From the IMG/VR virus record IMGVR_UViG_3300033072_000249, positions 1 through 64,000 of that record: a stretch of DNA of 64,000 bases; one strand, 5' to 3'. This document shows positions 3,749 through 53,830 of the stretch, piece by piece. The first letter of the stretch is position 1. Every line of letters starts with the position of its first letter. Made by a program: the position numbers and the translations under genes. Below the pieces are notes generated by a model. That model was not told the DNA's origin, did not search any database, and saw nothing but the letters and a program-made list of their open reading frames with translations. The stretch is from a virus. Taxonomy: Duplodnaviria > Caudoviricetes.

Positions 3749-4197
3749 GTACCGGCGCTGACGCCGAGTCGAGGCTCGGGATCGAGGCCCTCGGCTTGTC
3801 AAACAGGTCGAGAAACGTCTTGCGTAGGCACGGGATTGAGACGATCCAACAGCTTCTCAGTCGATCGCTGAAGAGTCTCCAGAAGCTCGATGGCTTTGGG
3901 GATAGGGCGACATGGGAGGTTTGCGGGGCCCTGCGTCGCCTTGGCTTCTCGCTCAATCCAGAGCCGGTCTCTGGCGTCAAGCCAAGTAAGGCCTCCGTCG
4001 CCTACCTGGAGCGACTCCGGGATGAGTTTGCCATACAGGCAATGGGCGCACTGATCGCTGAGCCACCATGGGGCGGAAGCCGCTCACTTGTCAGCTCGTG
4101 GGCCGATCGAAGTGGAGAGGGTCCAGGAACCCCAGATCGCTACGCCTTTGCGGCCTACGCCATGGCCGACGCCATGCTGAGAGCGAGGTCGAAATGA
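3745..4197 (+). CDS. RNA polymerase alpha-CTD-like domain fused to a common phage C-terminal motif
   Basis: GTGA coupling; IEALGLSNRSRNVLRRHGIETIQQLL..LQKLDGFGDRATWEV resembles alpha-CTD; C-terminal RDEFAIQAMGALI..AYAMADAMLRAR. Confidence 0.75.
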   Translation: MSTGADAESRLGIEALGLSNRSRNVLRRHGIETIQQLLSRSLKSLQKLDGFGDRATWEVCGALRRLGFSLNPEPVSGVKPSKASVAYLERLRDEFAIQAMGALIAEPPWGGSRSLVSSWADRSGEGPGTPDRYAFAAYAMADAMLRARSK

Positions 4198-32440: not shown

Positions 32441-35400
32441 ATGTACGAAGACCTGATCGTCCCCGCCGGCGGATCGTTGCCGGCCACCACCAGTCCATCG
32501 GCAAACCCTGCACCGGCCGGCGGCAACGTCGAGTCTTTCGTGCAGACCTATTTGCCTTTGGCTCAGAAGGTTTCCGAGAAGACTGGTGTGGCCCCCGAGT
32601 CGCTGCTGGGGCAGTGGGGTCTCGAGACCGGATGGGGTAAGAGCGTCATCCCTGGCACCAACAACCTGGGCAACATCAAGGATGTGACCCGCAAGGGGCC
32701 GGTGGCGGTTGACAACATGACGAAGTCGTCTGACTCGTACATGGCATTCGAGACCCCCGATCAGTTCGGCGACCACTACGTCGGTCTGCTGGGTCGCCGC
32801 TACAAGACCGCAATGGGTGCTGGCGATGACTCGCAGAAGTTCTTCACCGAGCTCAAGCGCAGCGGCTACGCCGAAGACCCGGGCTACATCCAGAAGGGTG
32901 TGAACGCCGCCAACATGGTGGCAAAGGTGCTGGGCGGCGAGGGCCGCCAGATGACCACTGTTCGCGATCCGCAGGCTGCCGCACCAGCGCCTGGTGGCGA
33001 ATACTTCATGCCCCAGCGCGGCGTGTATGCCGACCTGATCGTGCCACCCGAGCCTCGCTCGTTTGGCGAGGCCGCTGCTGATACAGCCCTCGGCGCCGCA
33101 TCCGGCGTGGTGCAGGGCGTGGGCCTGCTGGCCAATGTGGCAGGCGCAGATAACCCTGTGTCCCGTGGTGCCAGCGAGATCTCACAGAGCCTGATGGGCA
33201 TGCAGTCTCCGCAGCGCCAGGCCGAGCGCGCCGCTCGCGCCGACACCATCCGCGCAGCCGAGGAAACGGGCAGCACCTGGGAGGAGATCAAGGCCAACGT
33301 GGGCGGCTTCCTTGAGGCCCCCGTCGAGACCACACTCAATGCCCTGGGCACCAGCGCCCCGACCATCCTGACCGCATTCATTCCCGGCCTGGGCCAAGCT
33401 GGCGCTGCACGCCTGATTCTGCAGGGTGCGCTGGGTGCCGCCCAGGGCGCTGGCGCGGTGAAGGGATCGATCTACGAGTCGGTGGAGCGCAAGCTGGTCG
33501 AGAGTGGCCTGTCGAAAGATGAGGCAGCCAAGATCGCTGCCGGCGCGCAAGCCTACGACAGCGAGAACGGTGGCAACATCGCGGCCGGCGCCATCCTCGG
33601 AGCTGCCGCGGGCACGACCGGTATCGAGGCGATGCTCAGCAAAGCGATGGGTGGCAACGCTGCAGCTCGTGGCTTGTTGGCTCGCGCCGGCATTGGCGTC
33701 GCAACGGAGGCCCCCGTCGAAGGCGCTCAAGGCGGGCAGGAGCGCTACGCCTCCAACGTCGCCCTACAGAACGAGGGGTTCGATGTCCCCACCTTCCAGG
33801 GCGTTGCAGGCCAGGCCGCCGGTGAGGCCGTCGCCAGCGCACCTGGTGGCGCCGCATTCGGCGCGCTCACACCGCCGGGCCCTGTGCCTGCGCCGATCCC
33901 GCCCGAGCTGCAGCCGGTTGCAGACAAGGCCGCCGAACCCAACAGCCCACTGTCCAAGGCCGCCATGGCCGGCGTGCAGACCGGCGCCGCTCAGGCTGCA
34001 TTGCAGCCTGCAGCGCCCCAGGTGGACCCGATGCAGCGCCTGGCCGAGCTCGAGGCCATCGGCAAAGACAAGCCGGCGCAACAGGTCACCGACGAAGCAG
34101 GCAACCCGCTGACCGCCCCTGGCGAGCGCGGCCGCTTCTTCACCGCCGAAGAGAAGGCTGAATACGACCAGCTCAAGGCCCTGCGTGACTCAACCCCCGG
34201 CATGACGCCGGAGGATCGCGACCAAGTCCAGCAGGCTGAAGTCTCGCAGCGCGACGAGATCCTGGAGCGCGTGACCGAGATCCGTGAGCTGCTGCGCGTG
34301 CCTGGCGCGCTGGATAGCCTGCGCGCCGAGGGCGCACCCACCACGGTGCAGAAATTCCTGGGCGACCTGGCTACCGCCGCCAGCAAGTCCGCATCGCCCG
34401 CTGTGCGTGAGCAGGCCCTGAACCGCGCCGAGATGGCGGCCGAGGTCGCCGGCCTGCAGCTGCAGCGCCGCGACGACATGCCGCGCTCGCAGACCAATGA
34501 GCGGACTGGCCCGCCCACCCGGGCAGACCAGGCTGCCGGCATGGTGACATCCACGGCAGGCATCTCGGCCGATGAGCGCGTCGAGGCGCTGCAGGCCATC
34601 GCAGCCTACCGCAATCCCAACCTGCCCGCCGGCACGCGCCAGGCCGCGCTGAATCGCGCGCTGGAGATCGTTGGCCGCGCCCAGGCTCCCCGGGGTACGC
34701 CGTCCGATCGTCAGACGCCGGCAGTCCTGGACGAGATCCCGCCGCAGCCCAACACGCCCGAGTGGTTCGAGGCTGAGGCCAAGCGTCGCGAGGAGGGCGC
34801 ATGGCAGTTCCGCCAGCTTGGCTACGACGACGAGGCCGACGCGCTGCTGGCAGAGATTGACCCGCTGCTCGAGGCCGCCGCGTCCGCGCGCGCTGGAGAG
34901 CTCGGCATGGAGGACTCGGCGGCCGAGGGTGATGGCATTGCTTCGCCCGTTGCGCAACAAACAGTTGACCAGGCAACCGCCGGTTTGCCGCGCGCACCAA
35001 TTGCCCCTGAGGATGTCAGTCGCCCAGCAGAAGAGCGCACCGCCGCGCGCCGCAAGCGCCGTGGCCAGTTCCGCCAGCTCGCCGACCTGGGCTTCGAGAC
35101 CGTGGAGCGTGATGGCGACGGCTTCGTGCTGCGCAACGCTAAGACGGGTCAGGCGGTGACCCTGGAGTCTGCGGCTGATGCGCAGCTGGCACGCATGGCC
35201 ATCAAGGACGCCGTCGATGCCAAGGCCCACACCGCGGCAGCGAGCCCGCTGAACGATCGCAAGGAGCCCACCGAGGGTCAGATCCGCGCCGGCAACTACA
35301 AGAAGTCGGACGTGATCGAGATGAACGGCGTCAAGGTCGTCATCGAGAACCCGCGCGGCAGCGTGCGCCGTGGCGTGGGCGCTGATGGCAAGCCTTGGGA

Positions 35401-38400
35401 AACCGAGATGAAGCACCACTACGGCGAGATCGTCGGCACCGAGGGTGCTGATGGCGACCGCGTGGATGTTTTCATCGGTAGCCGCCCGGACAGCAACCGC
35501 ATCTTCATCGTCGACCAGGTCAACGAGGATGGCTCGTTCGATGAGCACAAGGTGGTGTTCGGCGCCACCAGCGAGGCTGACGCGCGAAAGACCTACCTCG
35601 ACAACTACGAGAAGGGCTGGACTGGCCTGGGTTCCATCAAGGAGATGGCTCAGCCCGACTTTGTCCAGTGGGTCAAGTCTCGTGCCGCGAAGAAGCCCGC
35701 ATCCGAGAGTGAGATCGGCACCTTCACGGTCACCAGCGACGGCAAGACCTACACACTGCGTTCCGTCGCCGTGGATGGCATGCCAGCTGCCGCCGACTCG
35801 GCTGCGCGCGGCGAGCGCGGCCAGCGCATCACCAAGAACCAGGCACTCCTGCTCAAGGGTCTGGCCGGCTTCTTCGGCAAGGACGTGGTCTTCTTCTCCG
35901 ACCCGGAGAACAAGGTCAACGCCGACGGCTTCATCAAGCCCGGCGACAACGTCACGCTCTACATCAACGAGCGTTCCGGCATTTCGCCGCTGGCAGTGTT
36001 CGGCCACGAGCTGATGCACCTGCTGAAGCTCGATAACCCTGTGGCCTATGCCGCCATCGAGAAGGTGGTGCGCGATCGCGTGGCAGACCCCAAGGGTTTC
36101 CGCGCCGACTACGAAGGCAAGAAGCGCGACGACGCCAAGGATGGCGACCTCAGCTCTGCCGAGCTCGAGGAGCTGATCAGCGACCTCAACGGCAACCTGA
36201 TGGGCGACGCTGCATTCTGGAAGTCGGTGTTCGATGAGATCCAGGGCGCCGCCGGCAAGGAAGCCAAGGGCATCATCGCCCAGCTGCAGGCATTCCTGCA
36301 GCGCATGCTGGACGGCGCGGTTGCCGCGTTCAAGGGTCAGCCCACCTTCAAGGCTGACGGCTTCATCAAGGACGCCGACGCTGTGCGCGCCGCGTTCCGC
36401 ACAGGCCTGGCGCAGTGGGCTCAGTCCCAGGGCATCACCAAGGCGGCCATGCAGGGTGAGCTCCTGCGCGCCGAGAAGAAGCTGGGCGACGTCAAGAAGT
36501 CGACGCCTCGGCCGACCGATGGCCTCACGGTCACCGGCTACCACTTCAGCAAGCAGCCGCGCACGCTGCTGACCACGGGCTTCTTCGGCACCGGCCTGCA
36601 GGGCAGCGACCGCGAGCAGATCATGGCTCACCCGGATCGCCGCCTGCGTGAGCGCCTGTCGTTCTATGCGAACAAGGGCACCGGCGTGCGCCCCGAGTCT
36701 GGTGTTGGCGGCATCGCCCACAAGGCCGAGCTCACCAACATCTACGACTCCGACGCCGACATGAAGCGCCTGAAGGAAGGGCGCGATCGCCGCGGCTTCG
36801 AGTCGGCTGTGATCAACGTCGGCTACTCGGGCTACCTGTCCCGCCTCGAGGGCAGCCAGCCAGCCCAGGTGATCCTGCTGGGCCGCCAGACCGTCACCCC
36901 TGAGGTGCTGGGCCCTCGCAACCAGATCGACGACGCACCGCTGGTGCCGGCGAAGCAGCAGCGCCCGATGAACCTGGGCGACAAGATCCTGGCCAACAAA
37001 GCCCTGCCGGCCGGCAAGATGCCGCCGCAGACCTGGGCCAAGATCCTGATGGCCACCATGCCCGAGGAGGCAGCCCAGCTGCTGGACGTCGGCGCCCTGG
37101 GCACCAAGGACGTCTACAAGGACGAGCTGGTCCGCATGATCCGCGAGGCCAGTGGCGACATCAAGAAGTCCGCCGCCCGCGCCAAGAGCGAATTCGCCGA
37201 GGTCGAGGCCAAGTACAAGGACACCGACCAGTGGCTCAAGGCTCCGAACGGCGCCAAGACCAACCTGAACCAGCGCCAGTGGGTGCAGGTCCGCACACCG
37301 GCGTTCAAGAAGTGGTTCGGCGACTGGGAGGCCGCGGCCGCCAAGGGCGGCGTGTGGGCCAGCAACGACGTCTCCAAGGCGGTCGACGAGAACGGCGAGC
37401 CGCTGGTGGTCTACCACGGCACCGACAAGGGTGGCTTCTCGGAGTTCAAGGAGCCCGGTGGCACGAAGCGCGGCGACCTCGGCATCTTCACCACGCCGAA
37501 TCGGTGGATGGCATCCAGCTACGTCCGCAAAGGTCGAGCGGGAGCTATCACAGAAGACAAGCTGCAGCCACAGGATGCCGAGATCAAGGATCTCGGGTTC
37601 TCGTTGCCAAATGGAAACCGCTGGGTTCTGAGTCTCGATGGAGGCAAGCGTCAGTCCTACTACGAGACCGAGGAGGCTGCACAAGACGCGCTCGAGTCGA
37701 TGGGTGGCGAAAAGACGTCTGGCGTCTACGCCCTGTTCCTCAACATCCGCGACCCGAACGAGTCTGACTTCGAGGGCGCACTGTGGAGTGGTGAGCGGCC
37801 GGACCAATACCAGGTCCGCAACGAGGATGGCGAGAACATCGAGTGGGATGGTCGAATCTACTTCGACCTCGAGACTGCGCAGCGCCTGGCCGACGAGAAC
37901 GAGGGCGCCGAGGTGGAGCCGGCCGACGACCGCTTCGAGACCACCGACGATGTGGTCAAGGACGCCCGCCGCTATGATAACGACGGCGCCATTATTCGCA
38001 ACGTCATCGACGATGGCGGTGGCGGTGGCGGCTACGACCTTGAGCCCAGCGACGTCTTCGTTGCCCTTGATCCAAGCCAGCTGAAGAGCGCCGACTTCAA
38101 CGGCGGCGAGTTCAGCGCAGACAGCGACGACATCCGCAAGAGCGAGAAGCGCGAGTACAAGCTGGACATTGAGCGCGAGAGCCGCGTCAAAAGCAAGGCT
38201 GTCCGCATGCTCCCGGAAGAGCTGGCAGCGATCGACGCCGACGCCAAGAAGCTGGGCCTGTCAACTGTTCAGGTCAAGTCCATCATCGACAGCGCCAAGG
38301 CAACCAAGCGTCAGTACCCCGCCTCCGAGGGTTGGGCTCCGATCTCTGTTGTCGGTGTCAACGTCAAGAAAGACGACGACGGAAACCAGATTGCTGGCAC

Positions 38401-41299
38401 CGAGGAGCCGAAGTTCAAGGAGATCTCCTACGGCTTCAACGTCACCCCTGGCAAGACTCGCGCATCGCCGAAGATGGACACCGAGCTCGCAGGCAAGGTG
38501 GCCAAGAAGTTCGAGCAGCTGATCCTCGAGATCTACGACCGGGCACAGTCTGGCGATAAGAACGCGCAGATCATCGTCGGCCATCAGACCTGGTATCGCA
38601 ACGTGGCCGAGGTGCTGCGCCGTGAGTACGGCGCCACGGGCGACATGCTGGCTGACCTGCTGGGCGCCACGTCGCCCAACACTCCGGTCGACACGAACTG
38701 GAAGTTCTCCATCGACATCATGCGCCGCTTTGTGCGCGGCGACTTCGATGAGCAGCTGGAGAAGTTCTCGCAGTTCGTTGAGCGCGGTGGCGACCCGTCG
38801 AAGTACCCGGCTGCCGACAAGATCCGCCAGATCAGCGGCAAGCTGTACGGCATGAACTCGACCAACGCCATGAAGGCACTGGTCGACATGTGGCGCGTGA
38901 TCGAGCCCGGCCAGGCGCCCAAGGCGCGCAACTTCGCATTGAACCTGATCGGCCAGTCCAATATGGCCACCATCGACGTGTGGGCTGCCCGCATGCTGCG
39001 CCGCGCCGCCAACATGGTGCGTGGCGTCAAGCTGCCTCGCATCCCGCCTGCTGCAGAGACCGGCGTCACCGGCAACTGGAATGCCGATGGCACCAAGGTC
39101 ACCGGCGAGTTCGGCTTCGGTGCCGAGGTCATGCAGATGGTCTCAGATTCGCTGGACAAGCGTGGCATCAAGGTGTCGCCGCCTGACCTCCAGGCCATCG
39201 CCTGGTTTGCTGAGAAGGAGCTCTGGGGTCAGAAGGGCTGGACCACCAAGACCGGCGAGGGTGGCTCCTTCGAGGAAAACATCGAGGCCACACCGGTGGA
39301 GCGCTACCTGGCCGGCTGGAGCATCCAGCAAGGCGAGAAGCGCCCCGATGAAGGCGAGTCCAGCATGGCCCAGGCGCGGGTGATGTCGATGCTGGTTGGC
39401 GACGACACCGTCCTAGCCGCCCGGGTGCTGCCGACCTATGGCCTGTATGGCGGCACCATTGAGGCCTCATTCGATACTGAATGGACTGCCCAGAAGGGCA
39501 AGCACGATCCGACCATGGTGATGGCCGAGATCGCGAAGCTGGCCCAAGAAAACAACCAGTGGGACATCTTCGTGTCTCGTGTGGTACAGCCTGGCGAGGA
39601 CAACCCGAACGCCCGCCCAGGCGTCGAGATCTACTTCCGCGACAGGAAGTCGCTCGACCAGGCCATGCCAGTTTTGGAGCGCTTCACCTCGCGCGGCCAG
39701 GATGGCTTTACAATGGCGGTGGACCCGCGAGCCAAGCGAAAAGGCTTGGACGACCAAGAGTTTATTGGCGTCCGCCTGCAGTACGTGCCCGAGATCTCGA
39801 TGCGCTGGGATGACACTCTCCGCGATGAGATCCTGAAGCCCGGAGCTGCCGACAAGATCCTCGGCGAGAAGCGTCAGCTCCTCCACGAGATCGCGCGCGA
39901 AGTTCGCTCCATGGATGGCGTGGCCTTTGCGGCCATGCAGCAGTACGACACGGTTGTCGTCGGAAAGGAAAGCTACGATGAGTACATTGATCGAGCAACT
40001 GAGGAAGGACGTCAGGGAGCTCGAGCGCAAGCATGGTTCGGACGACCCGTACGTCAAGGACTTGAAGGAGCAGCTGCGCGCCTCCGAGGCGAACGCCGGC
40101 AAGTCGACCGAGGAGGTTTACAAGATGCAGGCGACGCAGTTCAAGCCGACCCTGCCGGACGAGCCGATGCGCGAGCAATTCTCGACGCAGGAGGAGTTCG
40201 ACGAAGCCCGAGCCGGGTGGATGCATCGGGTCGGAAAGATCAAGGCTCTGGGCGCGAAGAAGACGGGAGCCTGAAGGGTTTGCCGCGCGACTTCAAGGTC
40301 GCCGGCATCGACATCCGCGCCAGCCACTGGGCACCCGCCGAGGCTGTAGCGCGCAAGTACATGGAGGGCGCCGGCCTCGAATACCGGCCGCCAACCCAGT
40401 ACGCCAAGGTCGACAAGGAGCGTGCCGCGCGCATCGCTGCCGAGTACGACCGGATGAAGCACGACCCGCAGAACCCCATGGTCAAGGCCGCCTACAAGGC
40501 CCTGGCCAAGGAGACGATCGCCCAATACAAGGCTGTGATCGACAGTGGCCTCGAGGTCGAGTTCATCGACTTTGCCGTCCAGGGAGACCCCTACGCCGCC
40601 AGCCCACGCCTGGCCACCGAGGACGTGCGCAACAACAACCACATGTGGGTGTTCAGCACACGCGATGGCTTTGGCTCCAACGCAGACTTCGACCCTGAGG
40701 ACAATCCGCTCCTGGCAGAGACGGAGTTCATGATCAGTGGCCAGCGCGCCCTGGTGAATGACCTGTTCCGCGTGGTCCACGACTACTTCGGCCACGTCAA
40801 GGAAGGCGTCGGCTTCCGGGCCGACGGCGAGGAAAACACCTGGCGCGCGCACAGCTCGATGTTCAGCCCGCTGGCCCAGCGCGCACTGACCACCGAGACC
40901 CGCGGCCAGAACAGCTGGGTGAACTACGGCCCCCACGGCGAGAAGAACCGCACCGCCTCCGCTGGCGACACGATCTTCGCCGACCAGAAGACCGGGTTGC
41001 TGCCGCTGTGGGTGAGCGAAGAGGGGCGCTACGACGACATCACAAAGTCGCCCGCTCGAGTGGATGACGACGAGATCACCGTTACGATCGGTGACGATGC
41101 GCCGGCCGCGCCGCAAGCCCCCACATCCAAGGACGAGGTGACCGCTCAGGAAGCCAAGGGCAAGAGTGTCACCTACGACGTCGAGGTCGAGGACACCGGC
41201 GAGACCGCCAAGATGACGGTCGACGCTGGCCAAGCCCTGGCCGACTACGACGAGCGGATCGACACCATGAAGAAACTGTTGGAGTGCCTGAAGAAATGA
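32441..41299 (+). CDS. giant polyvalent internal virion protein 1 (2952 aa)
   Basis: Glucosaminidase (QWGLETGWG..NNLGNIK), InPase-like (GNYKK..IENPRGS..HYGEI..DGDRVDVFIG), zincin HELMH, ART-like VYHGT module, HhH-glycosylase-like TIDVW..DLQAIAW, HDYFGH..GEE domain. Confidence 0.92.
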   Translation: MYEDLIVPAGGSLPATTSPSANPAPAGGNVESFVQTYLPLAQKVSEKTGVAPESLLGQWGLETGWGKSVIPGTNNLGNIKDVTRKGPVAVDNMTKSSDSYMAFETPDQFGDHYVGLLGRRYKTAMGAGDDSQKFFTELKRSGYAEDPGYIQKGVNAANMVAKVLGGEGRQMTTVRDPQAAAPAPGGEYFMPQRGVYADLIVPPEPRSFGEAAADTALGAASGVVQGVGLLANVAGADNPVSRGASEISQSLMGMQSPQRQAERAARADTIRAAEETGSTWEEIKANVGGFLEAPVETTLNALGTSAPTILTAFIPGLGQAGAARLILQGALGAAQGAGAVKGSIYESVERKLVESGLSKDEAAKIAAGAQAYDSENGGNIAAGAILGAAAGTTGIEAMLSKAMGGNAAARGLLARAGIGVATEAPVEGAQGGQERYASNVALQNEGFDVPTFQGVAGQAAGEAVASAPGGAAFGALTPPGPVPAPIPPELQPVADKAAEPNSPLSKAAMAGVQTGAAQAALQPAAPQVDPMQRLAELEAIGKDKPAQQVTDEAGNPLTAPGERGRFFTAEEKAEYDQLKALRDSTPGMTPEDRDQVQQAEVSQRDEILERVTEIRELLRVPGALDSLRAEGAPTTVQKFLGDLATAASKSASPAVREQALNRAEMAAEVAGLQLQRRDDMPRSQTNERTGPPTRADQAAGMVTSTAGISADERVEALQAIAAYRNPNLPAGTRQAALNRALEIVGRAQAPRGTPSDRQTPAVLDEIPPQPNTPEWFEAEAKRREEGAWQFRQLGYDDEADALLAEIDPLLEAAASARAGELGMEDSAAEGDGIASPVAQQTVDQATAGLPRAPIAPEDVSRPAEERTAARRKRRGQFRQLADLGFETVERDGDGFVLRNAKTGQAVTLESAADAQLARMAIKDAVDAKAHTAAASPLNDRKEPTEGQIRAGNYKKSDVIEMNGVKVVIENPRGSVRRGVGADGKPWETEMKHHYGEIVGTEGADGDRVDVFIGSRPDSNRIFIVDQVNEDGSFDEHKVVFGATSEADARKTYLDNYEKGWTGLGSIKEMAQPDFVQWVKSRAAKKPASESEIGTFTVTSDGKTYTLRSVAVDGMPAAADSAARGERGQRITKNQALLLKGLAGFFGKDVVFFSDPENKVNADGFIKPGDNVTLYINERSGISPLAVFGHELMHLLKLDNPVAYAAIEKVVRDRVADPKGFRADYEGKKRDDAKDGDLSSAELEELISDLNGNLMGDAAFWKSVFDEIQGAAGKEAKGIIAQLQAFLQRMLDGAVAAFKGQPTFKADGFIKDADAVRAAFRTGLAQWAQSQGITKAAMQGELLRAEKKLGDVKKSTPRPTDGLTVTGYHFSKQPRTLLTTGFFGTGLQGSDREQIMAHPDRRLRERLSFYANKGTGVRPESGVGGIAHKAELTNIYDSDADMKRLKEGRDRRGFESAVINVGYSGYLSRLEGSQPAQVILLGRQTVTPEVLGPRNQIDDAPLVPAKQQRPMNLGDKILANKALPAGKMPPQTWAKILMATMPEEAAQLLDVGALGTKDVYKDELVRMIREASGDIKKSAARAKSEFAEVEAKYKDTDQWLKAPNGAKTNLNQRQWVQVRTPAFKKWFGDWEAAAAKGGVWASNDVSKAVDENGEPLVVYHGTDKGGFSEFKEPGGTKRGDLGIFTTPNRWMASSYVRKGRAGAITEDKLQPQDAEIKDLGFSLPNGNRWVLSLDGGKRQSYYETEEAAQDALESMGGEKTSGVYALFLNIRDPNESDFEGALWSGERPDQYQVRNEDGENIEWDGRIYFDLETAQRLADENEGAEVEPADDRFETTDDVVKDARRYDNDGAIIRNVIDDGGGGGGYDLEPSDVFVALDPSQLKSADFNGGEFSADSDDIRKSEKREYKLDIERESRVKSKAVRMLPEELAAIDADAKKLGLSTVQVKSIIDSAKATKRQYPASEGWAPISVVGVNVKKDDDGNQIAGTEEPKFKEISYGFNVTPGKTRASPKMDTELAGKVAKKFEQLILEIYDRAQSGDKNAQIIVGHQTWYRNVAEVLRREYGATGDMLADLLGATSPNTPVDTNWKFSIDIMRRFVRGDFDEQLEKFSQFVERGGDPSKYPAADKIRQISGKLYGMNSTNAMKALVDMWRVIEPGQAPKARNFALNLIGQSNMATIDVWAARMLRRAANMVRGVKLPRIPPAAETGVTGNWNADGTKVTGEFGFGAEVMQMVSDSLDKRGIKVSPPDLQAIAWFAEKELWGQKGWTTKTGEGGSFEENIEATPVERYLAGWSIQQGEKRPDEGESSMAQARVMSMLVGDDTVLAARVLPTYGLYGGTIEASFDTEWTAQKGKHDPTMVMAEIAKLAQENNQWDIFVSRVVQPGEDNPNARPGVEIYFRDRKSLDQAMPVLERFTSRGQDGFTMAVDPRAKRKGLDDQEFIGVRLQYVPEISMRWDDTLRDEILKPGAADKILGEKRQLLHEIAREVRSMDGVAFAAMQQYDTVVVGKESYDEYIDRATEEGRQGARAQAWFGRPVRQGLEGAAARLRGERRQVDRGGLQDAGDAVQADPAGRADARAILDAGGVRRSPSRVDASGRKDQGSGREEDGSLKGLPRDFKVAGIDIRASHWAPAEAVARKYMEGAGLEYRPPTQYAKVDKERAARIAAEYDRMKHDPQNPMVKAAYKALAKETIAQYKAVIDSGLEVEFIDFAVQGDPYAASPRLATEDVRNNNHMWVFSTRDGFGSNADFDPEDNPLLAETEFMISGQRALVNDLFRVVHDYFGHVKEGVGFRADGEENTWRAHSSMFSPLAQRALTTETRGQNSWVNYGPHGEKNRTASAGDTIFADQKTGLLPLWVSEEGRYDDITKSPARVDDDEITVTIGDDAPAAPQAPTSKDEVTAQEAKGKSVTYDVEVEDTGETAKMTVDAGQALADYDERIDTMKKLLECLKK
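34955..34967. promoter_or_regulatory. CAAC-N5-GTTG site inside giant gene 1
   Basis: CAAC-AAACA-GTTG in a locally AT-richer patch. Confidence 0.4.
39978..40274 (+). CDS. 98-aa gene nested in the +1 frame of giant gene 1
   Basis: GGAAAGGAAAG upstream of ATG; nested frame carries the genome's GC3 bias while the host frame becomes A/T-ending. Confidence 0.8.
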   Translation: MSTLIEQLRKDVRELERKHGSDDPYVKDLKEQLRASEANAGKSTEEVYKMQATQFKPTLPDEPMREQFSTQEEFDEARAGWMHRVGKIKALGAKKTGA

Positions 41300-46372: not shown

Positions 46373-46619
46373 GTCGTTCAGTCGGAAGTCGTTCGCGCCT
46401 GAATCCTGGGCGCCGTTCACCATCGTCCTGCCGCCGGCTCCACCCCCGGAGATTGTTGGCACCGGTGGCGGCGCCGCAGCTGGCGTGGCCGGCTACAAAC
46501 TTCCATCTGCACTCGAGTACGAAAGCGACATTCGAGCTGAGATAATCCGAGAAGACGAAGAAATCCTGACGGTCATCATGAGTGCCGTCACAAGTGGAGC
46601 ATTGAAATGGGTGCATTGA
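46359..46619 (+). CDS. small hypothetical protein
   Basis: Likely GTG start 46359; overlaps both neighbours. Confidence 0.6.
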   Translation: MFSHKSFSRKSFAPESWAPFTIVLPPAPPPEIVGTGGGAAAGVAGYKLPSALEYESDIRAEIIREDEEILTVIMSAVTSGALKWVH

Positions 46620-49600
46620 AACTGACGGCGTGCATGAAGGTCGTCTCGAAGATGGGCGAGATGGACCAGGAGTCCTTGCTCGAGCGGCTAGACCGCTACA
46701 CCGCCGACGGCGTTCCGAAGGACCGCGCGCAGGTGATGGCCGCCGCGGACACTCTGGCCGAGCTCCAGGATGAGCGCCGCGAGTTCATGCGCCTGCTGCG
46801 CGAGCAGCACCCGCAGCTGTTCGTGGTGACCAACGTCATCCCCGAGGACCAGGACGTCGACCCGGATGCGCCGGACATCCAGCGCAGCCCCGGCCGCAGC
46901 GAGGAAGAGATCGCGGTCGCCAGGGCTGATGGCTGGACCATTGCCGACAACGACCTGCCGTCACGAGAGGCAGCGGAGCGCATCGTCAAGCTGCGCACCA
47001 AGGGCAACAGTGTCGTCAAGCCGATGCCCGCCTGGCAAGAGGCCGAGGTGCGTGTTGTCGAGAGCGACAACCCAGGCCTCTGGTCAATTGAGGTCCGCAA
47101 TCCTGGCATCCAGCGCAGCCCCGCACGCGACATCACAGACACCCCTGAGTTCAAACGCTGGTTCGGTGACTCCAAGGTGGTTGACGAGAAGGGCGCACCG
47201 CTCGAGGTCTATCACGCAACTGGCGCCAAGTTCAATGCGTTCGACCCGGGCAAGACGGGGTCTAACTACCCATCCTACGCAAAGCGTGGGTTCTTCTTCT
47301 ACCGCTCCCAGCAAAGCGCGACCGAGCGCGCATACGAGTTCGGCAGCAACGCCAGGCTGAAGCGCGTCTATTTGAGCCTGCAGAACCCACTCGTCGTCAC
47401 GGCTCGATCGAAGGGATCTGCCGAGGAGTGGTTTGACCGAAACAATCAGACCCTCTACTCGCGCGCCGAGAAGGCTGGCTCTGACGGCATCATCGTCAAG
47501 GTCAATCCTGACTCTAACGATTATGCGGCGGAGGAGATCTTCATCGCATTCGAGCCGACGCAGATCAAAAGCTCTCGCGGCAACAATGGTCAGTTCGACT
47601 CCAGCAACGCAGACATTACGCGCAGTCCGGCGCGCCAGACGGAGACGCCTGAGTTCAAAGAGTGGTTTGGCGACTCGGTGATGACCGAGGATGGTCGACC
47701 CGGCGGCGAGCCAATGACCCTCTACCACGGCGGCTTCAATTTCGCCGATGCTCCGACCGGCAAGGCCGTTCCCAAGACCGGCAATCGTGGCTCGCTCGGC
47801 GTCGGCTTTTACATGACGCCAGACCAATCAAGGGCCCAGGAGTATGCCGACGAAAACGATGGCGTTGTGACACAGGTCTACGTCCGCATGAATCGTCCGC
47901 TGGAGATTCGCATTGGTCGCGGGCAAGATCCCATGATTGAGGCCCTGGTTGAGCTTGGCATGCCGCGCGGCAAGGCCGAAACCAAAGTCGAGAGCGCCTA
48001 CGAAAAATACGGCTACATCGGTAGCGAGGTGAAGAAGCTGGCCCTCGATGCTGGCTATGACGGCCTGATCGAGTACATCGATGGCCGCATGTCGGAGGTC
48101 GTTGCCTGGACTCCCACCCAGGTGAAGTCTGCCACCGACAACGATGGCCAGTTCAGTTGGAATCCTGACATCCGTCGAAGCTCGGCGCGCAGCCCATCCG
48201 CGATCTTCGGCCGCGACATCGCGCCAGTCGCCATCAAGGCCTACAAGTCACTGTCTCCTCGCGCAAAAGGAATCATTGACGGCTGGAATGTGAACTGGTC
48301 CATGGGTCAAGGCAAGCTGCGCGACAGCGATGCGTTCGCCGAGGTCATGGCCGCCTACGAACCCGTGCGCGAGAAGCTGCGCCAGGTCTACGGCGACACC
48401 ATTCCGGCGTACCGCGGAGAGCAGCGCGATGGCAATGAGAGCGAAGGCGACCGCTTCCTGTTCTCCTGGACGCCAATGCGCGAGATCGCCACCAGCTTCG
48501 CTGTGAACCGGCGTGGCGGCATGCCTCCCGAGATCCCGCAGTCCAAGGTTGACGAGCAGATCGAGGCCTACCGCAAGACCGGCATCGCGCGCCTGAATGG
48601 CTACAAGTTCGTGCGCCAAGACCCGAAGGACTGGGAGCCTGACGGCCCGGACTACTACCATATCTACTGGCGCGGCGAGATGCAGACCGACGGCGACGAC
48701 ATCGCCCAGGCCCTGCAGTCCGAGAAGGCTGAGCGCGATGAGTACATTGCCACGTTGCGCGAGAAGGGTAAGCTGTACACCGCCAACATCCCGGTCGACT
48801 CGGTGGCCTTCATTCCGGTCGGCGTCAACCTGACCGAGCCTGAGTTCGTGGCCGAGTACAACCCGCGCAAGGATGAGGCTCAGGAGGTCAAGTTCAGCCC
48901 GGCGCGCAACGACATGGGCTTCTACAGCGCCCTGGCCAAGGGCGTTGAAGACATGCAGACCAAGGCGGCTCCGGCCGGCGCCTGGAAGACCCAGATCAAG
49001 GGCCTGGTGAACAAGGGCCAGGTCAAGCAGGACGAGATCGAGTGGTCGGGCCTCGAGGACTTCCTCGACCTGCAACAGGGCAAGGTCACCAAGGACCAGA
49101 TCCTCAAATACCTGCGCGGCAACGGCGTCCAGGTGGAGGAGGTGACCCTTGGAGCAACAGGCCTCGACGACGTCGGCGAGATGTATGTCGACGAAGCCAA
49201 CGACTATGGCGATGAATGGGCCGTCTTCACCGAGGAGGGCGGCATCATCGGCGGCACCTACTCGACACAGGAGGAGGCTGAGGACGCCATGGCGTCGATG
49301 TCACAGGATCTGCCATCGAAGTACAGTAAGTACACCCTGCCCGGCGGCGAGAACTACCGCGAGGTGTTGCTGACGCTGCCGGAGCTGCCTGTCAGTACGG
49401 CCGGGTGGACTGCCAAGGAGAAAGAGGGCGACCTTGCAAGCGGCCCAATCTGGGAGGTGCGAGACGAAAACGGTAGGCGGGTTCTCGGGGTTCCGAAGGA
49501 GAATGTCCCGACTGCAGAGCAGGCCATCAAGCGCGCCGCATCGATGGAGCGCAGCAACCCCAAGAACTACAAGTCCAGTCACTGGGACCAGAAGAACATC

Positions 49601-52600
49601 GTCGCCCACATCCGCGTCAAAGACCGCGCCGATGCCGATGGCAAGCGCGTGCTGTTCGTCGAAGAGATCCAGTCGGACTGGGGGCAGGAGGGGAAGAAGA
49701 ATGGCGTCGTCAAGAGCTACAAGCCAGATGAGGTCCAGCCCATCAGTGCCGTCGAGGCTGGCAAGATGACCGCGGCGGACGAGGAGCTGTTCTGGCACTT
49801 CAAGACTCCAGACAACGTCTTCTCGATCCCCAAGTCTAAGTACGCAGACCGCGAAGCGGCTCGCGACTACATCATCCGCGAGAAGAAGATCAACTCCGGC
49901 GGCGTGCCGGATGCTCCATTCATTGGCAAAACCGACGGCTGGCTCAACCTCGCCCTCAAGCGCGTCATCGCCATGGCGGTGGACGGCGGCTACGACGCGG
50001 TGGCGTTCGTCAATGGCGACCAGTCTGCTGACCACTACGACCTGAGCAAGCGGGTTGCAAAAGTCACCTACAACATCAACAAGAACTCCATCTCGGCATA
50101 CGCAGATGACAGGCCCGGAGCGCAGTCAATCTTCACCCGCGCCGCGTCGGAAGATGAGCTTCCTGACATCATCGGCAAAGAAGTGGCCGACCGCTTGATC
50201 AGTGCTGAGCCAAACCCGAATGGCTTGAAGATTCTTCGCGGACTCGACCTCAAAGTCGGCGGCGAAGGCATGAGGGCCTTCTACGACAAGATCGTCCCCA
50301 ACGCCGTGAAGGCTCTGCTTAAGAAGACGGGTGGCGGGCAGTTGGAAATGGTGAGCATCCCGAACCCTGAAGGCACGGGCCGCACGATGGAGGTCAGCCG
50401 CAGCCCCATGTTTGGCGGCGGCCGAGAGACCATCGCCATTGCTGATGAGCCCCCACTGCAGCAGCCAGGCTTCACTATCACCGACGCCATGCGCGAGAAG
50501 GTCTCGACCGAAGGTCTGCCGCTGTTCAGCCGCAAGCGCGACGTCACCGAGACGCCTGAGTTCAAGGCCTGGTTTGGCGACAGCAAAGTGGTCGATGATG
50601 AGGGTCGGCCCATGGTCGTCTACCACGGCACCGTGGTTCGCCAAGACACCGACCGCGTGAAGAGCATGGGCGACATCCGGGCTTTCGATAGGATGTTCAC
50701 GACCCAGTTCCGCAAGCCATCTCTGGACACTGTTGGCAGCTGGTTCAGCACCAACCCTGGCGACGGCGGAGCTGAGATGTACTCCGGCCGAGGTCAAGGC
50801 AGCGTCATCTACCCAGCCTACCTTTCCATCCAGAACCCACAGGTCACAACTTTCCAGCTCATGCAGCGCCGCGCGCGCCTGCTGGCCAACGGAAAAGATG
50901 ATGGCCGCCAGATCGGCGCCGAAGAGGTGGCCGCCTACCGAAAGTGGCTGCAGGACACTGGCAAGGATGGCGTCAAGATCGAGGGTAGCGGCAACGACGA
51001 CTCGACCGAGTTCGACAACCAGGTGGCCTGGATCGCACTCGAGCCGGAGCAGATCAAGAGCGCCACAGGCAACCGTGGCACCTTTGAACCCAACGACGTG
51101 GACATCACCCGCTCGCCTGGCCGAACCGCCACCGGTGCAGCATGGGACTCGCCCAGCGTCGAGAAATTCGATGACCTGGTCTACAAGCTGCAGGACAAGC
51201 TGGTCGACACGAAGCGGGTGGTCGAGGCCATCAAGACCGCCAGCGGCTCCATCGCAGACGACCTGAACGTCTACCTCCAGGAGGAGCTCTACCACGGCCG
51301 CGCCGCGAAGCGCACCGAGGACTTCGTGAACATGGAGCTCAACCCACTCATCGAGCAGATGGCCAGGGACGGCCTGAAGCTCGAGGATGTCGAGGAGTTC
51401 ATGCACGCTCGCCACGCGCCAGAGGCTAACGCCGTCATCGCCCAGCGCAACCCGGGCGTGGCTGAGCTCCAGGACGGCGGCTCCGGTATGAAGACGGCGG
51501 ACGCCCTGCAGTACATGGCAACCCTGCCGGCCGACCTGAAGCAGAAGCTCGAGGCCGCCACCATCAAGGTCGACGCCATCATCGCCAAGACCCGCGAGCT
51601 GTACGTTGACTACGAGCTCGAGTCGCGCGACACCGTGGATGCCTGGGGCCGCGTGTTCCAGCACTACATCCCCCTGATGCGCGAGGACAAGGACGGCAAC
51701 GGAAGTCCCGGCCTGGGCCAGGGCTTCAGCGTCAAGGGCAAGGAAACCAAGGGCCGCACCGGCTCGACCCGCAAGGTCGTCGACATCATGGCGAACATCG
51801 CCATGCAGCGCGAGAGGGCCATCGTGCGCGGCGAGAAGAACCGCGTCAGCCAGGCGCTGGTGGGCCTGGCCACGGCCAACCCCAACGAGGGCTTCTGGCA
51901 GGTCGATGAGGTGCCCACCGAGCGCGTCTTCAACGAGAAGACTGGCTTGGTCGAGGACCGCGTGGACCCCCTGTACAAGAGTCGCGAGAACGCCGTCATC
52001 GCCAAGATCAAGGGTGCCGACGGCAAAGTGAAGGAGCACGCGGTCCTGTTCAACGAGGAAGACCCGCGCGCTCTGCGCATGGCCCAGGCCCTGAAGAATC
52101 TGGATGCCAACCAGATCGAGGGCCTGCTCGGTGTCAGCGCCAAGATCACACGCTACTTCGCCGCCATCAACACGCAGTACAACCCCGTGTTTGGCGCTGT
52201 CAACTTGGTGCGCGACGTGCAGGGTGCGCTGCTCAACCTGAGCTCCACCCCACTGGCTGGCGACCAGGCCAAGATCGGCCGCTACACCATGTCCGCCCTG
52301 CGCGGCATCTACGCCGATGCGCGCGCCGCACGCAAGGGCAACAACCCGACTTCGCAGTGGGCAGCGCTGTGGGATGAGTTCCAGGAGGCGGGCGGCCAGA
52401 CTGGCTACCGCGACCTGTTCGCCACCAGCGCAGACCGTGCAGAGGCCATCAAGAGCACGCTGAACCCAGACGCCTGGGCTGACAGCCGCCTGGGTAAGAT
52501 CTTCACCGCCAACGGCGCGCTGAAGGTGCCCATGGCCCAGGCCAAGCGCGGCGCCGGCTGGATCTTCCAGTGGCTGAGCGACTACAACTTGGCGATGGAA

Positions 52601-53830
52601 AACGGTGTGCGCCTGGCGGCCTACAAGGCGGGCCTCGAGAAGGGCCTGTCGAAGGAGCAGGCAGCCAGCGCAGCCAAGAACATCACGGTCAACTTCAACC
52701 GCAAGGGCCAGGTCAGCCAGCAGGCTGGCGCGATGTACGCCTTCTTCAACGCCTCGCTGCAGGGCACGGCCCGCCTGGGCCAGACTCTGTTCGATATGGA
52801 GCCTGGCAAACCCAAGACCATCCGCTTGAGCTCGACCGGAAAGAAGATCGTCTACGGCGGCATCATGCTGGGATCGATCCAGGCTCTGGCCCTGGCGGCT
52901 GCAGGCTTCAATGACGATGACCCGCCCGAGTTCGCCCGCGAGCGCGGCCTGATCATCCCGATTGGTGGCAAGAAGTACCTCACGATCCCGATGCCCCTGG
53001 GATTCCATGTGATCCCCAACATCGGCCGCATCGCCACCGAGTTCGCACTGAGCGGCTTCAAAGATCCGCACGAGCGCGCACTGTCGCTGGCCAGCCTGTT
53101 CGCCGACACGTTCAACCCGATCGGCAACTCGGGCCTGTCCATGCAGACCCTGGCGCCCACCGCGCTGGACCCGCTGGTGGCGCTGACCGAGAACCGTGAC
53201 TGGACTGGAAAGCCGATCGCTCGCGAGTCAAGAAACCCGGCAATCCCCGGCCACGCCCTGGGCCGTGACACCGCTAGCTCCATCGCCAAGCTCCTGTCTG
53301 AAGGCATCAACACCCTGTCCGGCGGCAACAAGTACGTGGCCGGCGTGTTCAGCCCAACCCCGGACCAGATCGACTACCTGCTGGGCCAGGTCACCGGCGG
53401 CGTCGGCCGTGAACTGTCCAAGGTGGAACAGACCGTGCTGGCCACGGCGCGCGGCGAAGACCTGCCGACCTACAAGGTGCCGCTGGTTGGCCGCTTCGTT
53501 GGCGACGCGAAGAGTCAGGCCAGCGAGGGCGCCGCCTTCTATGCCAACACCGAGCGCCTGAACAAGCTCGAGACCGAGATCAAGGGCCTGGAGAAGGATG
53601 GCAAGCGCGCCGAAGCTGCCGAGCTGCGCCGCAACAGCAGCGAGGCCTACCTGATCACAGTGGCCAACCAGGCCGAGCGCCAGATCCAGCGCCTGCGCAG
53701 CGAGAAGCGTGAGCTGGTGAAGGCCGGCGCGCCGCGCGAGCAGGTGAAGGCTGTCGAGGAGCGCATCACCGCGGTGATGGCCCGCCTCAACCGCGCAGCC
53801 GAGGCGCTACGCGAGAAGCAGGAAGGCTGA
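46607..53830 (+). CDS. giant polyvalent protein 2 (2407 aa): multiple ART-like modules, EEIQSDW domain, LPD38-like C-terminus
   Basis: Three TPEFKxWFGDS..YHG/A..QIKS modules, one YRG..SWT..E module, FVEEIQSDWGQ, DDDPPEF..IIPI..YLTIPMPLGF. Confidence 0.92.
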   Translation: MGALKLTACMKVVSKMGEMDQESLLERLDRYTADGVPKDRAQVMAAADTLAELQDERREFMRLLREQHPQLFVVTNVIPEDQDVDPDAPDIQRSPGRSEEEIAVARADGWTIADNDLPSREAAERIVKLRTKGNSVVKPMPAWQEAEVRVVESDNPGLWSIEVRNPGIQRSPARDITDTPEFKRWFGDSKVVDEKGAPLEVYHATGAKFNAFDPGKTGSNYPSYAKRGFFFYRSQQSATERAYEFGSNARLKRVYLSLQNPLVVTARSKGSAEEWFDRNNQTLYSRAEKAGSDGIIVKVNPDSNDYAAEEIFIAFEPTQIKSSRGNNGQFDSSNADITRSPARQTETPEFKEWFGDSVMTEDGRPGGEPMTLYHGGFNFADAPTGKAVPKTGNRGSLGVGFYMTPDQSRAQEYADENDGVVTQVYVRMNRPLEIRIGRGQDPMIEALVELGMPRGKAETKVESAYEKYGYIGSEVKKLALDAGYDGLIEYIDGRMSEVVAWTPTQVKSATDNDGQFSWNPDIRRSSARSPSAIFGRDIAPVAIKAYKSLSPRAKGIIDGWNVNWSMGQGKLRDSDAFAEVMAAYEPVREKLRQVYGDTIPAYRGEQRDGNESEGDRFLFSWTPMREIATSFAVNRRGGMPPEIPQSKVDEQIEAYRKTGIARLNGYKFVRQDPKDWEPDGPDYYHIYWRGEMQTDGDDIAQALQSEKAERDEYIATLREKGKLYTANIPVDSVAFIPVGVNLTEPEFVAEYNPRKDEAQEVKFSPARNDMGFYSALAKGVEDMQTKAAPAGAWKTQIKGLVNKGQVKQDEIEWSGLEDFLDLQQGKVTKDQILKYLRGNGVQVEEVTLGATGLDDVGEMYVDEANDYGDEWAVFTEEGGIIGGTYSTQEEAEDAMASMSQDLPSKYSKYTLPGGENYREVLLTLPELPVSTAGWTAKEKEGDLASGPIWEVRDENGRRVLGVPKENVPTAEQAIKRAASMERSNPKNYKSSHWDQKNIVAHIRVKDRADADGKRVLFVEEIQSDWGQEGKKNGVVKSYKPDEVQPISAVEAGKMTAADEELFWHFKTPDNVFSIPKSKYADREAARDYIIREKKINSGGVPDAPFIGKTDGWLNLALKRVIAMAVDGGYDAVAFVNGDQSADHYDLSKRVAKVTYNINKNSISAYADDRPGAQSIFTRAASEDELPDIIGKEVADRLISAEPNPNGLKILRGLDLKVGGEGMRAFYDKIVPNAVKALLKKTGGGQLEMVSIPNPEGTGRTMEVSRSPMFGGGRETIAIADEPPLQQPGFTITDAMREKVSTEGLPLFSRKRDVTETPEFKAWFGDSKVVDDEGRPMVVYHGTVVRQDTDRVKSMGDIRAFDRMFTTQFRKPSLDTVGSWFSTNPGDGGAEMYSGRGQGSVIYPAYLSIQNPQVTTFQLMQRRARLLANGKDDGRQIGAEEVAAYRKWLQDTGKDGVKIEGSGNDDSTEFDNQVAWIALEPEQIKSATGNRGTFEPNDVDITRSPGRTATGAAWDSPSVEKFDDLVYKLQDKLVDTKRVVEAIKTASGSIADDLNVYLQEELYHGRAAKRTEDFVNMELNPLIEQMARDGLKLEDVEEFMHARHAPEANAVIAQRNPGVAELQDGGSGMKTADALQYMATLPADLKQKLEAATIKVDAIIAKTRELYVDYELESRDTVDAWGRVFQHYIPLMREDKDGNGSPGLGQGFSVKGKETKGRTGSTRKVVDIMANIAMQRERAIVRGEKNRVSQALVGLATANPNEGFWQVDEVPTERVFNEKTGLVEDRVDPLYKSRENAVIAKIKGADGKVKEHAVLFNEEDPRALRMAQALKNLDANQIEGLLGVSAKITRYFAAINTQYNPVFGAVNLVRDVQGALLNLSSTPLAGDQAKIGRYTMSALRGIYADARAARKGNNPTSQWAALWDEFQEAGGQTGYRDLFATSADRAEAIKSTLNPDAWADSRLGKIFTANGALKVPMAQAKRGAGWIFQWLSDYNLAMENGVRLAAYKAGLEKGLSKEQAASAAKNITVNFNRKGQVSQQAGAMYAFFNASLQGTARLGQTLFDMEPGKPKTIRLSSTGKKIVYGGIMLGSIQALALAAAGFNDDDPPEFARERGLIIPIGGKKYLTIPMPLGFHVIPNIGRIATEFALSGFKDPHERALSLASLFADTFNPIGNSGLSMQTLAPTALDPLVALTENRDWTGKPIARESRNPAIPGHALGRDTASSIAKLLSEGINTLSGGNKYVAGVFSPTPDQIDYLLGQVTGGVGRELSKVEQTVLATARGEDLPTYKVPLVGRFVGDAKSQASEGAAFYANTERLNKLETEIKGLEKDGKRAEAAELRRNSSEAYLITVANQAERQIQRLRSEKRELVKAGAPREQVKAVEERITAVMARLNRAAEALREKQEG

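Follow-up and report, generated by a model that had tools for sequence, protein, structure and literature searches.

Long overlaps between genes on the same strand are thought to be rare in bacteria and phages, and gene callers discard them by design. Among the described cases, the small gene comS lies out of frame inside srfAB of Bacillus subtilis, and in phage lambda the spanin gene Rz1 is embedded in the +1 frame of Rz. In polymorphic toxin systems, immunity proteins (CdiI of contact-dependent inhibition systems and the immunity proteins of colicins and of Rhs and type VI secretion effectors) are encoded by separate, nonoverlapping open reading frames (ORFs) downstream of the toxin domain. 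The subject of the present analysis is a 98-codon ORF at positions 39978 to 40274 of a phage genome, nested in the +1 frame of a 2952-codon ORF that encodes a polyvalent virion or cargo protein. The window, that is, the whole stretch of DNA that was analyzed, comprises 64,000 nucleotides and corresponds to positions 1 to 64,000 of IMG/VR record IMGVR_UViG_3300033072_000249 (Caudoviricetes), a complete 85-kb phage record of 63% GC. Judged from its sequence and that of its relatives, 39978-40274 is a case of genuine dual coding, with selection acting on both frames.

The nested gene resembles comS in having its own start in a shifted frame inside a giant multimodule gene with which it is co-transcribed. 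ComS acts on competence via MecA/ClpCP and is unconnected with the surrounding surfactin synthetase module, whereas here binding to the adjacent domain is predicted; the arrangement described here also recurs in many phage lineages, and the overlapped segment of the host frame would be a disordered linker rather than an enzyme module. With Rz/Rz1 the locus shares a complete phage gene embedded in the +1 frame of a larger one, and the products of Rz and Rz1 are both made and interact, where an interaction is predicted in the present case. Rz1, however, is an outer membrane lipoprotein with a signal peptide and a lipobox cysteine, the features by which outer membrane spanins of its type are recognized, and the 98-residue product has neither, containing no cysteine and no hydrophobic segment or N terminus. 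Rz itself is a 153-residue spanin, the host here is a cargo protein of 2952 residues, and there is no sequence similarity between the systems. Like immunity proteins, the small protein is encoded directly beside an effector-type domain, appears to be co-inherited with it on shuffling, is predicted to bind it, and exists in orphan copies. Immunity genes do not overlap the toxin gene and follow the toxin domain; the small gene, by contrast, occupies another frame of the giant ORF, and its predicted binding module precedes the partner domain. No match by sequence or by family was found. Nesting as such therefore has precedents in Rz1 and comS, and what appears to be new is a small-protein family, embedded in a new class of host gene, with a predicted physical link to the neighboring domain.

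The coding signal changes frame over this interval. Measured in 120-nucleotide windows, third-position GC in the frame of the 2952-codon ORF (the giant frame) is 0.35 to 0.42 over 39941-40180 versus 0.75 to 0.97 elsewhere in the giant ORF, and in the +1 frame it is 0.88 to 0.95 over the same interval. All other true genes of the window, the second giant ORF (46541-53830) among them, lack such a frame switch. The 98-codon ORF lies wholly inside 32441-41299, on the same strand and in another frame, as expected of an embedded overlapping gene, and it carries a start codon and a putative ribosome-binding site of its own (Table 1). No promoter-like site specific to the nested gene and no unusual RNA structure around its start were found. 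Among homologous copies, the nested start is ATG or, rarely, GTG, with a GGAG/AAGGAG-type motif 5 to 9 nucleotides upstream. A +1-frame stop stands immediately 5' of the nested start in six related loci (designated L085, L094, L092, L054, L024, and L027), and in the smallest form, that of L085, the ORF extends over exactly 43 codons, from an ATG abutting a TAA to a TAG. These stops, together with the Shine-Dalgarno motifs, make independent initiation on the giant mRNA the parsimonious reading of the start and render frameshifting very unlikely. An earlier note on this DNA had pointed to a purine-rich ribosome-binding site, to the ATG and TGA, and to a nested frame written in the usual codons of the genome over a giant frame that turns aberrant and passes into a low-complexity Arg/Gly/Asp linker. 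All of these signals are present; the codon claim is borne out by the switch in third-position GC and the linker claim by the translation. The gene was also said to be invisible to standard annotation, and GenBank phage records that contain the nested ORF do annotate the giant coding sequence only.

Relatives were gathered by local tblastn and then with a hidden Markov model (HMM) of the C-terminal motif of the small protein, their loci being fetched via the downstream domain or via the motif itself. The ORF recurs in two IMG/VR relatives, each time in the +1 frame of a giant ORF that is open: L002 with 84% amino acid identity and L003 with 65% identity over residues 1 to 62 and a GTG start. 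When the window was compared with L002 in 300-nucleotide windows up to 40874, 38 to 46% of giant-frame third positions differed in the flanks, versus 2 to 12% of first and second positions. Over 39978-40127, only 10 of 150 sites differ, and the first 37 residues of the +1 protein are identical while the giant-frame peptide is altered. The last third of the small ORF gave no clear frame-specific pattern (10, 7, and 10 differences by codon position). The HMM extended the arrangement much further, since all 47 of its matches (34 distinct sequences from 40 to 69% GC) occupy the +1 frame of an uninterrupted giant ORF, directly 5' of the downstream domain. The +1 ORFs in these copies span 43 to 145 codons, and the enclosing open frames span 503 to 2955. 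The presence of the same +1 ORF with an open giant frame in relatives argues that 39978-40274 is neither a chance ORF nor an assembly error. Weaker C-module-like +1 ORFs occupy the same place in phages of 36 to 37% GC, and the family is carried by phages of Proteobacteria and Cyanobacteria.

The same nested arrangement occurs in two bacterial genomes, those of Paraburkholderia saeva and a Polynucleobacter. In the former (L117:4184-5877), the nested C module lies in a 1061-codon host gene followed by two ORFs, the first of which is ParB-like by eye, a context more in keeping with a prophage or with a plasmid-like or integrative element than with a lytic phage. At three further loci (L098:519-1002, L099:423-1236, and L100:1205-1886), the small gene is intact beside a remnant, the last 20 to 60 residues, of the upstream domain. 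L099 adjoins a fragment that by eye resembles the C-terminal portion of a HipA kinase; the downstream domain of L100 seems to be frameshifted, and all three are low-coverage sequences in which sequencing errors are possible.

Selection was assessed in both frames. Nei-Gojobori ratios of nonsynonymous to synonymous differences (pN/pS) for the nested ORF ranged from 0.12 to 0.91 in the +1 frame, where all but 1 of 21 pairs fell below 0.8, and the same bases read in the giant frame gave 0.48 to 3.2, mostly at least 0.85. For the N-terminal module (below) the corresponding ranges were 0.17 to 0.85 and 0.66 to 1.9. Between L054 and L037, 18 successive +1 residues (DFPSQEEYEEAKAFFLHR) are identical and 5 of the 18 giant-frame residues differ. 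In a recoding test, the small protein was rewritten synonymously with the codon usage of its own locus, and the share of trials in which the giant frame remained open was counted. Of nine loci of 40 to 48% GC, one gave a share of 2.1% and the other eight gave 0 to 0.55%; for the last 58 codons of the window's gene it was 14%. The summed log10 P was -51 over 34 sequences, which are related and not independent, so that kinship overstates the independence behind this figure. The pN/pS ratios and the recoding test together indicate that the sequence of the small protein is protected and that the giant frame is actively kept free of stops. A giant-frame segment at the junction, GVRRSPSR (40181-40204), was considered as a selected motif and rejected: it is what the bases for the +1 peptide EEFDEARA spell in the giant frame, and relatives do not conserve it as such; the recurrent giant-frame pattern D-A-G-G-V-R-(R/G)-(S/G) is what TQEEF(E/D)EA yields when read one base earlier.

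An exhaustive profile-free search against 1.84 billion representatives identified 80 homologous clusters at E values of ≤1e-3 and 21 at ≤1e-10. Nearly all are small proteins (43 to 201 amino acids), and most align from residue 1; all are of metagenome origin and are unnamed or labeled "hypothetical protein." The small protein has no family in Pfam, PHROGs, or the ESM Atlas, and tblastn against phage and plasmid collections gave no match. AlphaFold2 (AF2) with the family alignment models it at a mean predicted local distance difference test score (pLDDT) of 82.3, with helices at residues 4 to 19, 24 to 38, and 44 to 51, a flexible connector, and a long helix at 71 to 96. The alignment divides the protein into an N module with the motif MSTLIE.L...LE.KHGSD.PYVKDLKEQLRA and a C module with the motif LP..P.REQF.TQEEFEEA..GW..RVGRIK, in which P, P, F, E, A, and W are invariant. 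N-only, C-only, and N+C proteins all occur, some with other leading or trailing modules. Nested N modules always begin 1 or 2 nucleotides past the end of an upstream-domain homolog, and nested C modules always end where the downstream domain begins. A different +1-frame module (…PETEEDxIRAEALRRLxVRRLL…) is nested in front of a variant of the downstream domain at L038:3520-4000 (domain start at 4001), in L075, and in L071, and a module of this type is also present in the small proteins P0007 and P0010. The variant downstream domain in L038, L075, and L071 begins LAPLxGxPS…GPDPRLVEVAERYA, and in L038 and L075 it goes with the alternative "ETEEDGIRAEALRRL" module; the type of partner module seems to track the type of domain.

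The family also includes free-standing copies, which are not nested and whose -1 frame is closed (L103 to L105, L101, L109, and L111). These start at the same Met as the nested copies and are under purifying selection (pN/pS, 0.14 to 0.54). Those in L103 to L105 sit between a gene for an outer membrane beta-barrel protein (OMP_b-brl) and one for a DUF4156 lipoprotein. An HTH_3 regulator and a DUF805 membrane protein are encoded nearby, and any polyvalent gene is far away; these could be captured orphan copies. On a 1.5-kb contig (L111:204-1172), a 195-aa protein with a C-module-like motif is followed in tandem, without nesting, by a 107-aa N+C protein, which could represent an unfused arrangement.

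The domain encoded directly downstream of the C module is enzyme-like and uncharacterized, with the motifs RE.DGSL.GLPR, HDYFGH, GFRxxGEEN, and TETRGQNSW in this order. It has 196 IMG/VR relatives, and 33 of its alignment columns are invariant, including those of HDYFGH, GFRxxGEE, and TETRGQN and with them His, Asp, Glu, and Arg residues. Modeled alone, it reaches a pLDDT of 85.9. Fold searches with the model gave nothing convincing (best Foldseek E value, 0.35; best VIA Z score, 2.9, with a root mean square deviation of 3.2 over 55 aligned residues), and matches in the ESM Atlas were to unnamed viral clusters only. A likeness to minigluzincin zymogens was rejected, with Z scores of 2.6 to 2.7 that are not above noise and a spacing in HDYFGH that is not that of HExxH. 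The domain is also found in cyanophages and in an Octadecabacter virus, and it forms a stand-alone gene in Bixzunavirus mycobacteriophages and in Streptomyces phage Dagobah. GenBank labels on the genes enclosing it include "lysin," "RelA/SpoT," and "crystallin motif protein."

A model of the complex between the small protein and residues 1 to 265 of this domain scored 0.86, 0.86, and 0.84 by interaction prediction score from aligned errors (ipSAE), versus 0.01 for the best of three controls. The mark used was reached by 58 of 80 solved complexes and by 2 of 110 mismatched pairs, counts that are rough, own alignments having been used. Between runs, at least 88% of contacts agree, and the pLDDT of the partner is at least 70. 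No similar complex is known, and memory of a solved structure is therefore unlikely to explain the score. On the small protein, the predicted interface comprises residues 56 to 65 and 73 to 94 of the C module, including the invariant P60, P63, E76, A77, and W81; the N module stays free. On the domain, it comprises residues 100 to 114, 126 to 137, 162, 166, 180 to 186, 212, and 228 to 238, many of which are invariant (Y107, P111, T129, G132, G134, N162, R166, G180 to R182, E186, and Q212 among those contacted). Binding of the C module to a conserved face of the downstream domain is thus, on the model, the most likely arrangement.

The explanation that we favor, and consider rather probable, is that 39978-40274 is a dual-coding stretch whose 98-residue product is the cognate, co-inherited partner of the downstream domain, most likely as an inhibitor or holding factor, and that the small gene is the older of the two readings. 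According to this scheme, the giant frame would supply a disordered linker between two domains of a polyvalent cargo protein, and the +1 frame would supply an independently initiated helical protein from the same mRNA. Each module of that protein would be tied to its adjacent domain, the N module to the upstream domain and the C module to the HDYFGH domain, and contact of the C module with the conserved face of the latter would make the small protein its cognate partner. As an inhibitor or holding factor, it may hold the domain inactive or in solution within the cell that makes it; alternatively, it may neutralize the same domain arriving from a superinfecting phage. Binding is predicted in silico, and the inhibitory or immunity-like role and the order of events are inferred.

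Part of what the earlier note proposed survives in this explanation. Its large frame does stay open over a real, selected gene (47 of 47 copies, pN/pS, and recoding), the product is predicted to be helical as it had said of this charged protein, and the gene directly follows an uncharacterized domain, in the same order in relatives. The searches that it suggested recovered both stand-alone homologs and copies nested after the same upstream domain, none of the 47 copies shows the +1-frame stop that a disrupted gene would have, and the structure model of the complex supports binding to a neighboring domain. The candidate immunity gene holds up in part: predicted binding to a neighbor, co-inheritance, and orphan copies agree with it, but the predicted partner lies downstream and not upstream. 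The order expected of immunity genes, following the toxin domain, is contradicted, the binding module being directly upstream of its partner in all 47 copies. As for effector modules that travel with an overprinted antidote, the small gene does travel with the neighboring domains, but the direction of overprinting is probably the reverse.

Several observations weigh against the favored explanation. The downstream domain, at most a candidate toxin, has no Pfam hit at E values of ≤0.1 and no sequence match in the Protein Data Bank. In about one-third of the IMG/VR loci that have the domain, no frame shows a C module, and the actinophage homologs of the domain stand alone; together these indicate that the domain does not universally need the partner. 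Small genes beside the stand-alone domain in actinophages (Dagobah gp89 and Rizal gp103) have no similarity to the C module. The co-occurrence of modules and domains is confounded by their physical linkage, the free-standing copies in bacterial-looking contigs adjoin unrelated envelope genes, and one pair of loci (L073/L083) has a pN/pS of 0.91 in the +1 frame versus 0.48 in the giant frame.

The main rival accepts that the small gene is real and that its product binds the downstream domain but makes that product a required subunit, a folding chaperone, or an activator, acting in trans and possibly co-packaged. The modeled placement of the C-module helix against invariant core residues fits a structural complement equally well, self-immunity would be of little use to a lytic phage, and a small gene that is co-transcribed from immediately 5' of the domain would have its product at hand as the domain leaves the ribosome. 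We nevertheless consider this account unlikely, if worth serious attention: AF2 folds the domain confidently by itself, and in the loci and actinophages that have it without a detectable C module it can fold and presumably work alone. A fossil would be a different matter, an old small gene swallowed by gene fusion whose signature has not yet decayed but that is no longer expressed or useful. Its codon usage and its relatives outside giant genes do make the small gene look older than the linker, it has been lost from some loci, and the last third of the ORF shows no frame-specific pattern against L002. Decay would, however, bring stops into the +1 frame, and there are none in any copy; moreover, the motif, the start codon, and the Shine-Dalgarno sequence are conserved among phages that range from 40 to 69% GC and have reached saturation at the DNA level (pS up to 0.9), and pN/pS is below 1 in nearly all pairs. 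We regard a fossil as quite improbable.

Frameshifting is common in phages, and the +1 peptide might end a shorter isoform of the giant protein that arises by a programmed +1 shift, or it might begin a separate product that continues into the downstream domain after a -1 shift. In the window, the 47 codons 5' of the ATG contain no +1-frame stop, and some copies have Lys-rich AAR runs near the 3' end. Yet a heptamer of the X_XXY_YYZ type occurs near the 3' end in only 4 of 32 distinct sequences with no conserved site, at least six loci have a +1-frame stop directly before the ATG, starts carry Shine-Dalgarno motifs, free-standing homologs start at the same Met, and the nested stop is not at a constant distance from the domain. 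With no conserved slippery site and with stops directly before the ATG, programmed -1 or +1 frameshifting was rejected and retains very little probability. A pair of compensating insertions or deletions in a once in-frame segment could in principle switch the frame locally and leave the big ORF open, and assembly errors could do the same. This idea is scarcely credible and was also rejected, the same +1 offset being found in every relative examined across independent samples and assemblies; the giant frame encodes the peptide in none of the copies, and the peptide has start signals and free-standing homologs of its own.

The giant gene probably formed by fusion of the genes for the flanking domains through the -1 frame of the small gene, a frame that rarely contains stops when third-position GC is high and that selection would since have held open. 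By the criteria customary for overlapping genes, the small gene would be the older reading and the linker a younger one laid over it, because the former has normal codon usage, a protein-like sequence, and free-standing relatives, and the latter has aberrant codons, low complexity, and a pN/pS of about 1 or more. We further suggest, tentatively and as a possibility short of a probable one, that linkers in polyvalent proteins of phages and plasmids commonly conceal shifted-frame genes, whose products would be dedicated binding partners, neutralizing or holding, of the adjacent effector domains. A domain and its linker-encoded partner might then form a recombination cassette, the partner modules of abutting cassettes might fuse into one nested ORF, as at this locus, and the free-standing bacterial copies might be captured antidotes. 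If so, captured antidotes that blunt an injected effector would be a new type of antiphage defense.

The nested copies comprise at least 34 distinct sequences and the proteins form 80 clusters, over 40 to 69% GC, which makes this a deep and well-sampled dual-coded family. It makes testable how giant injected multieffector proteins are held in check or assembled, how effector cassettes can shuffle together with their partners, and how a fusion of genes can superimpose a new frame on an older gene, which is classical overprinting in reverse. In addition, a widespread, uncharacterized phage domain gains a first (predicted) interaction partner. Annotations of cultured phages miss a gene as well, as in Planktothrix phage Pag-Yong1, where the C-module match is weak.

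Table 1. Coordinates of the nested gene, its modules, and the surrounding features (positions in the window unless a locus is given)
Feature	Position	Strand	Description	Basis
Nested small gene	39978..40274	+	98 codons plus stop, +1 frame of giant ORF; ATG 39978, TGA 40272-40274	
Shine-Dalgarno-like sequence	39962..39972	+	GGAAAGGAAAG, 5-8 nucleotides before ATG; unpaired in predicted local RNA fold	Sequence, fold
N module	39978..40148	+	Residues 1-57 of small protein, predicted helical hairpin	Alignment, AF2
C module	40143..40259	+	Residues 56-94 of small protein, extended PxxP stretch and long helix (predicted)	Alignment, HMM, AF2, complex model
Host gene	32441..41299	+	Polyvalent virion or cargo protein, 2952 codons	ORF list, translation, Pfam
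Upstream domain	39281..39994	+	Uncharacterized; about aa 2281-2518 of giant protein	tblastn to relatives
Giant-frame linker	39995..40252	+	About 86 residues, Arg/Gly/Asp/Ala-rich; open, not conserved as protein	Translation, pN/pS, recoding
Downstream domain	40253..41050	+	Enzyme-like, uncharacterized; predicted partner of C module	Relatives, invariant columns, AF2, complex model
Free-standing N+C homologs	L103:3001-3303, L104:1662-1964, L105:3001-3303		100 aa; bacterial-looking contigs up to 105 kb	

The host protein has Pfam matches to glucosaminidase (2.7e-16), InPase (9.6e-50), ART-PolyVal (1.3e-14), and DUF7178 (4.1e-09), as well as further domains that match no Pfam family, and so many unrelated effector-type domains in one predicted phage polypeptide place it among the polyvalent proteins. 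Polyvalent proteins of phages and conjugative elements were described by Iyer et al. (2017; PMC5512222), and the host gene is typical of them in joining InPase, ART-PolyVal, and lysozyme-type domains in one giant polypeptide. It differs from the known examples in that Pfam has neither the small-protein family nor the downstream domain and PHROGs lacks the small protein. The words "overlapping," "frameshift," and "linker" do not occur in that paper, and its one "reading frame" and two "nested" passages concern other matters; full-text literature searches found no description of nested genes in polyvalent proteins.

Homologs of the upstream domain were found by tblastn at 51 to 90% identity in L002, L003, L097, L107/108, L110, and L112, in all of which they stop 1 or 2 nucleotides short of the start of the small gene. 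The conserved C-terminal end of this domain, VVGKE(S/N)YDEYIDR, encodes the Shine-Dalgarno sequence and the ATG of the small gene. At the other end of the giant protein, the last ~50 residues (41144-41296) form a separate small unit behind a 30-residue low-confidence spacer. Its sequence matches only ubiquitin, at chance level (E values of 0.3 to 0.9), and it is modeled as two strands and a long helix (pLDDT, 74 to 84).

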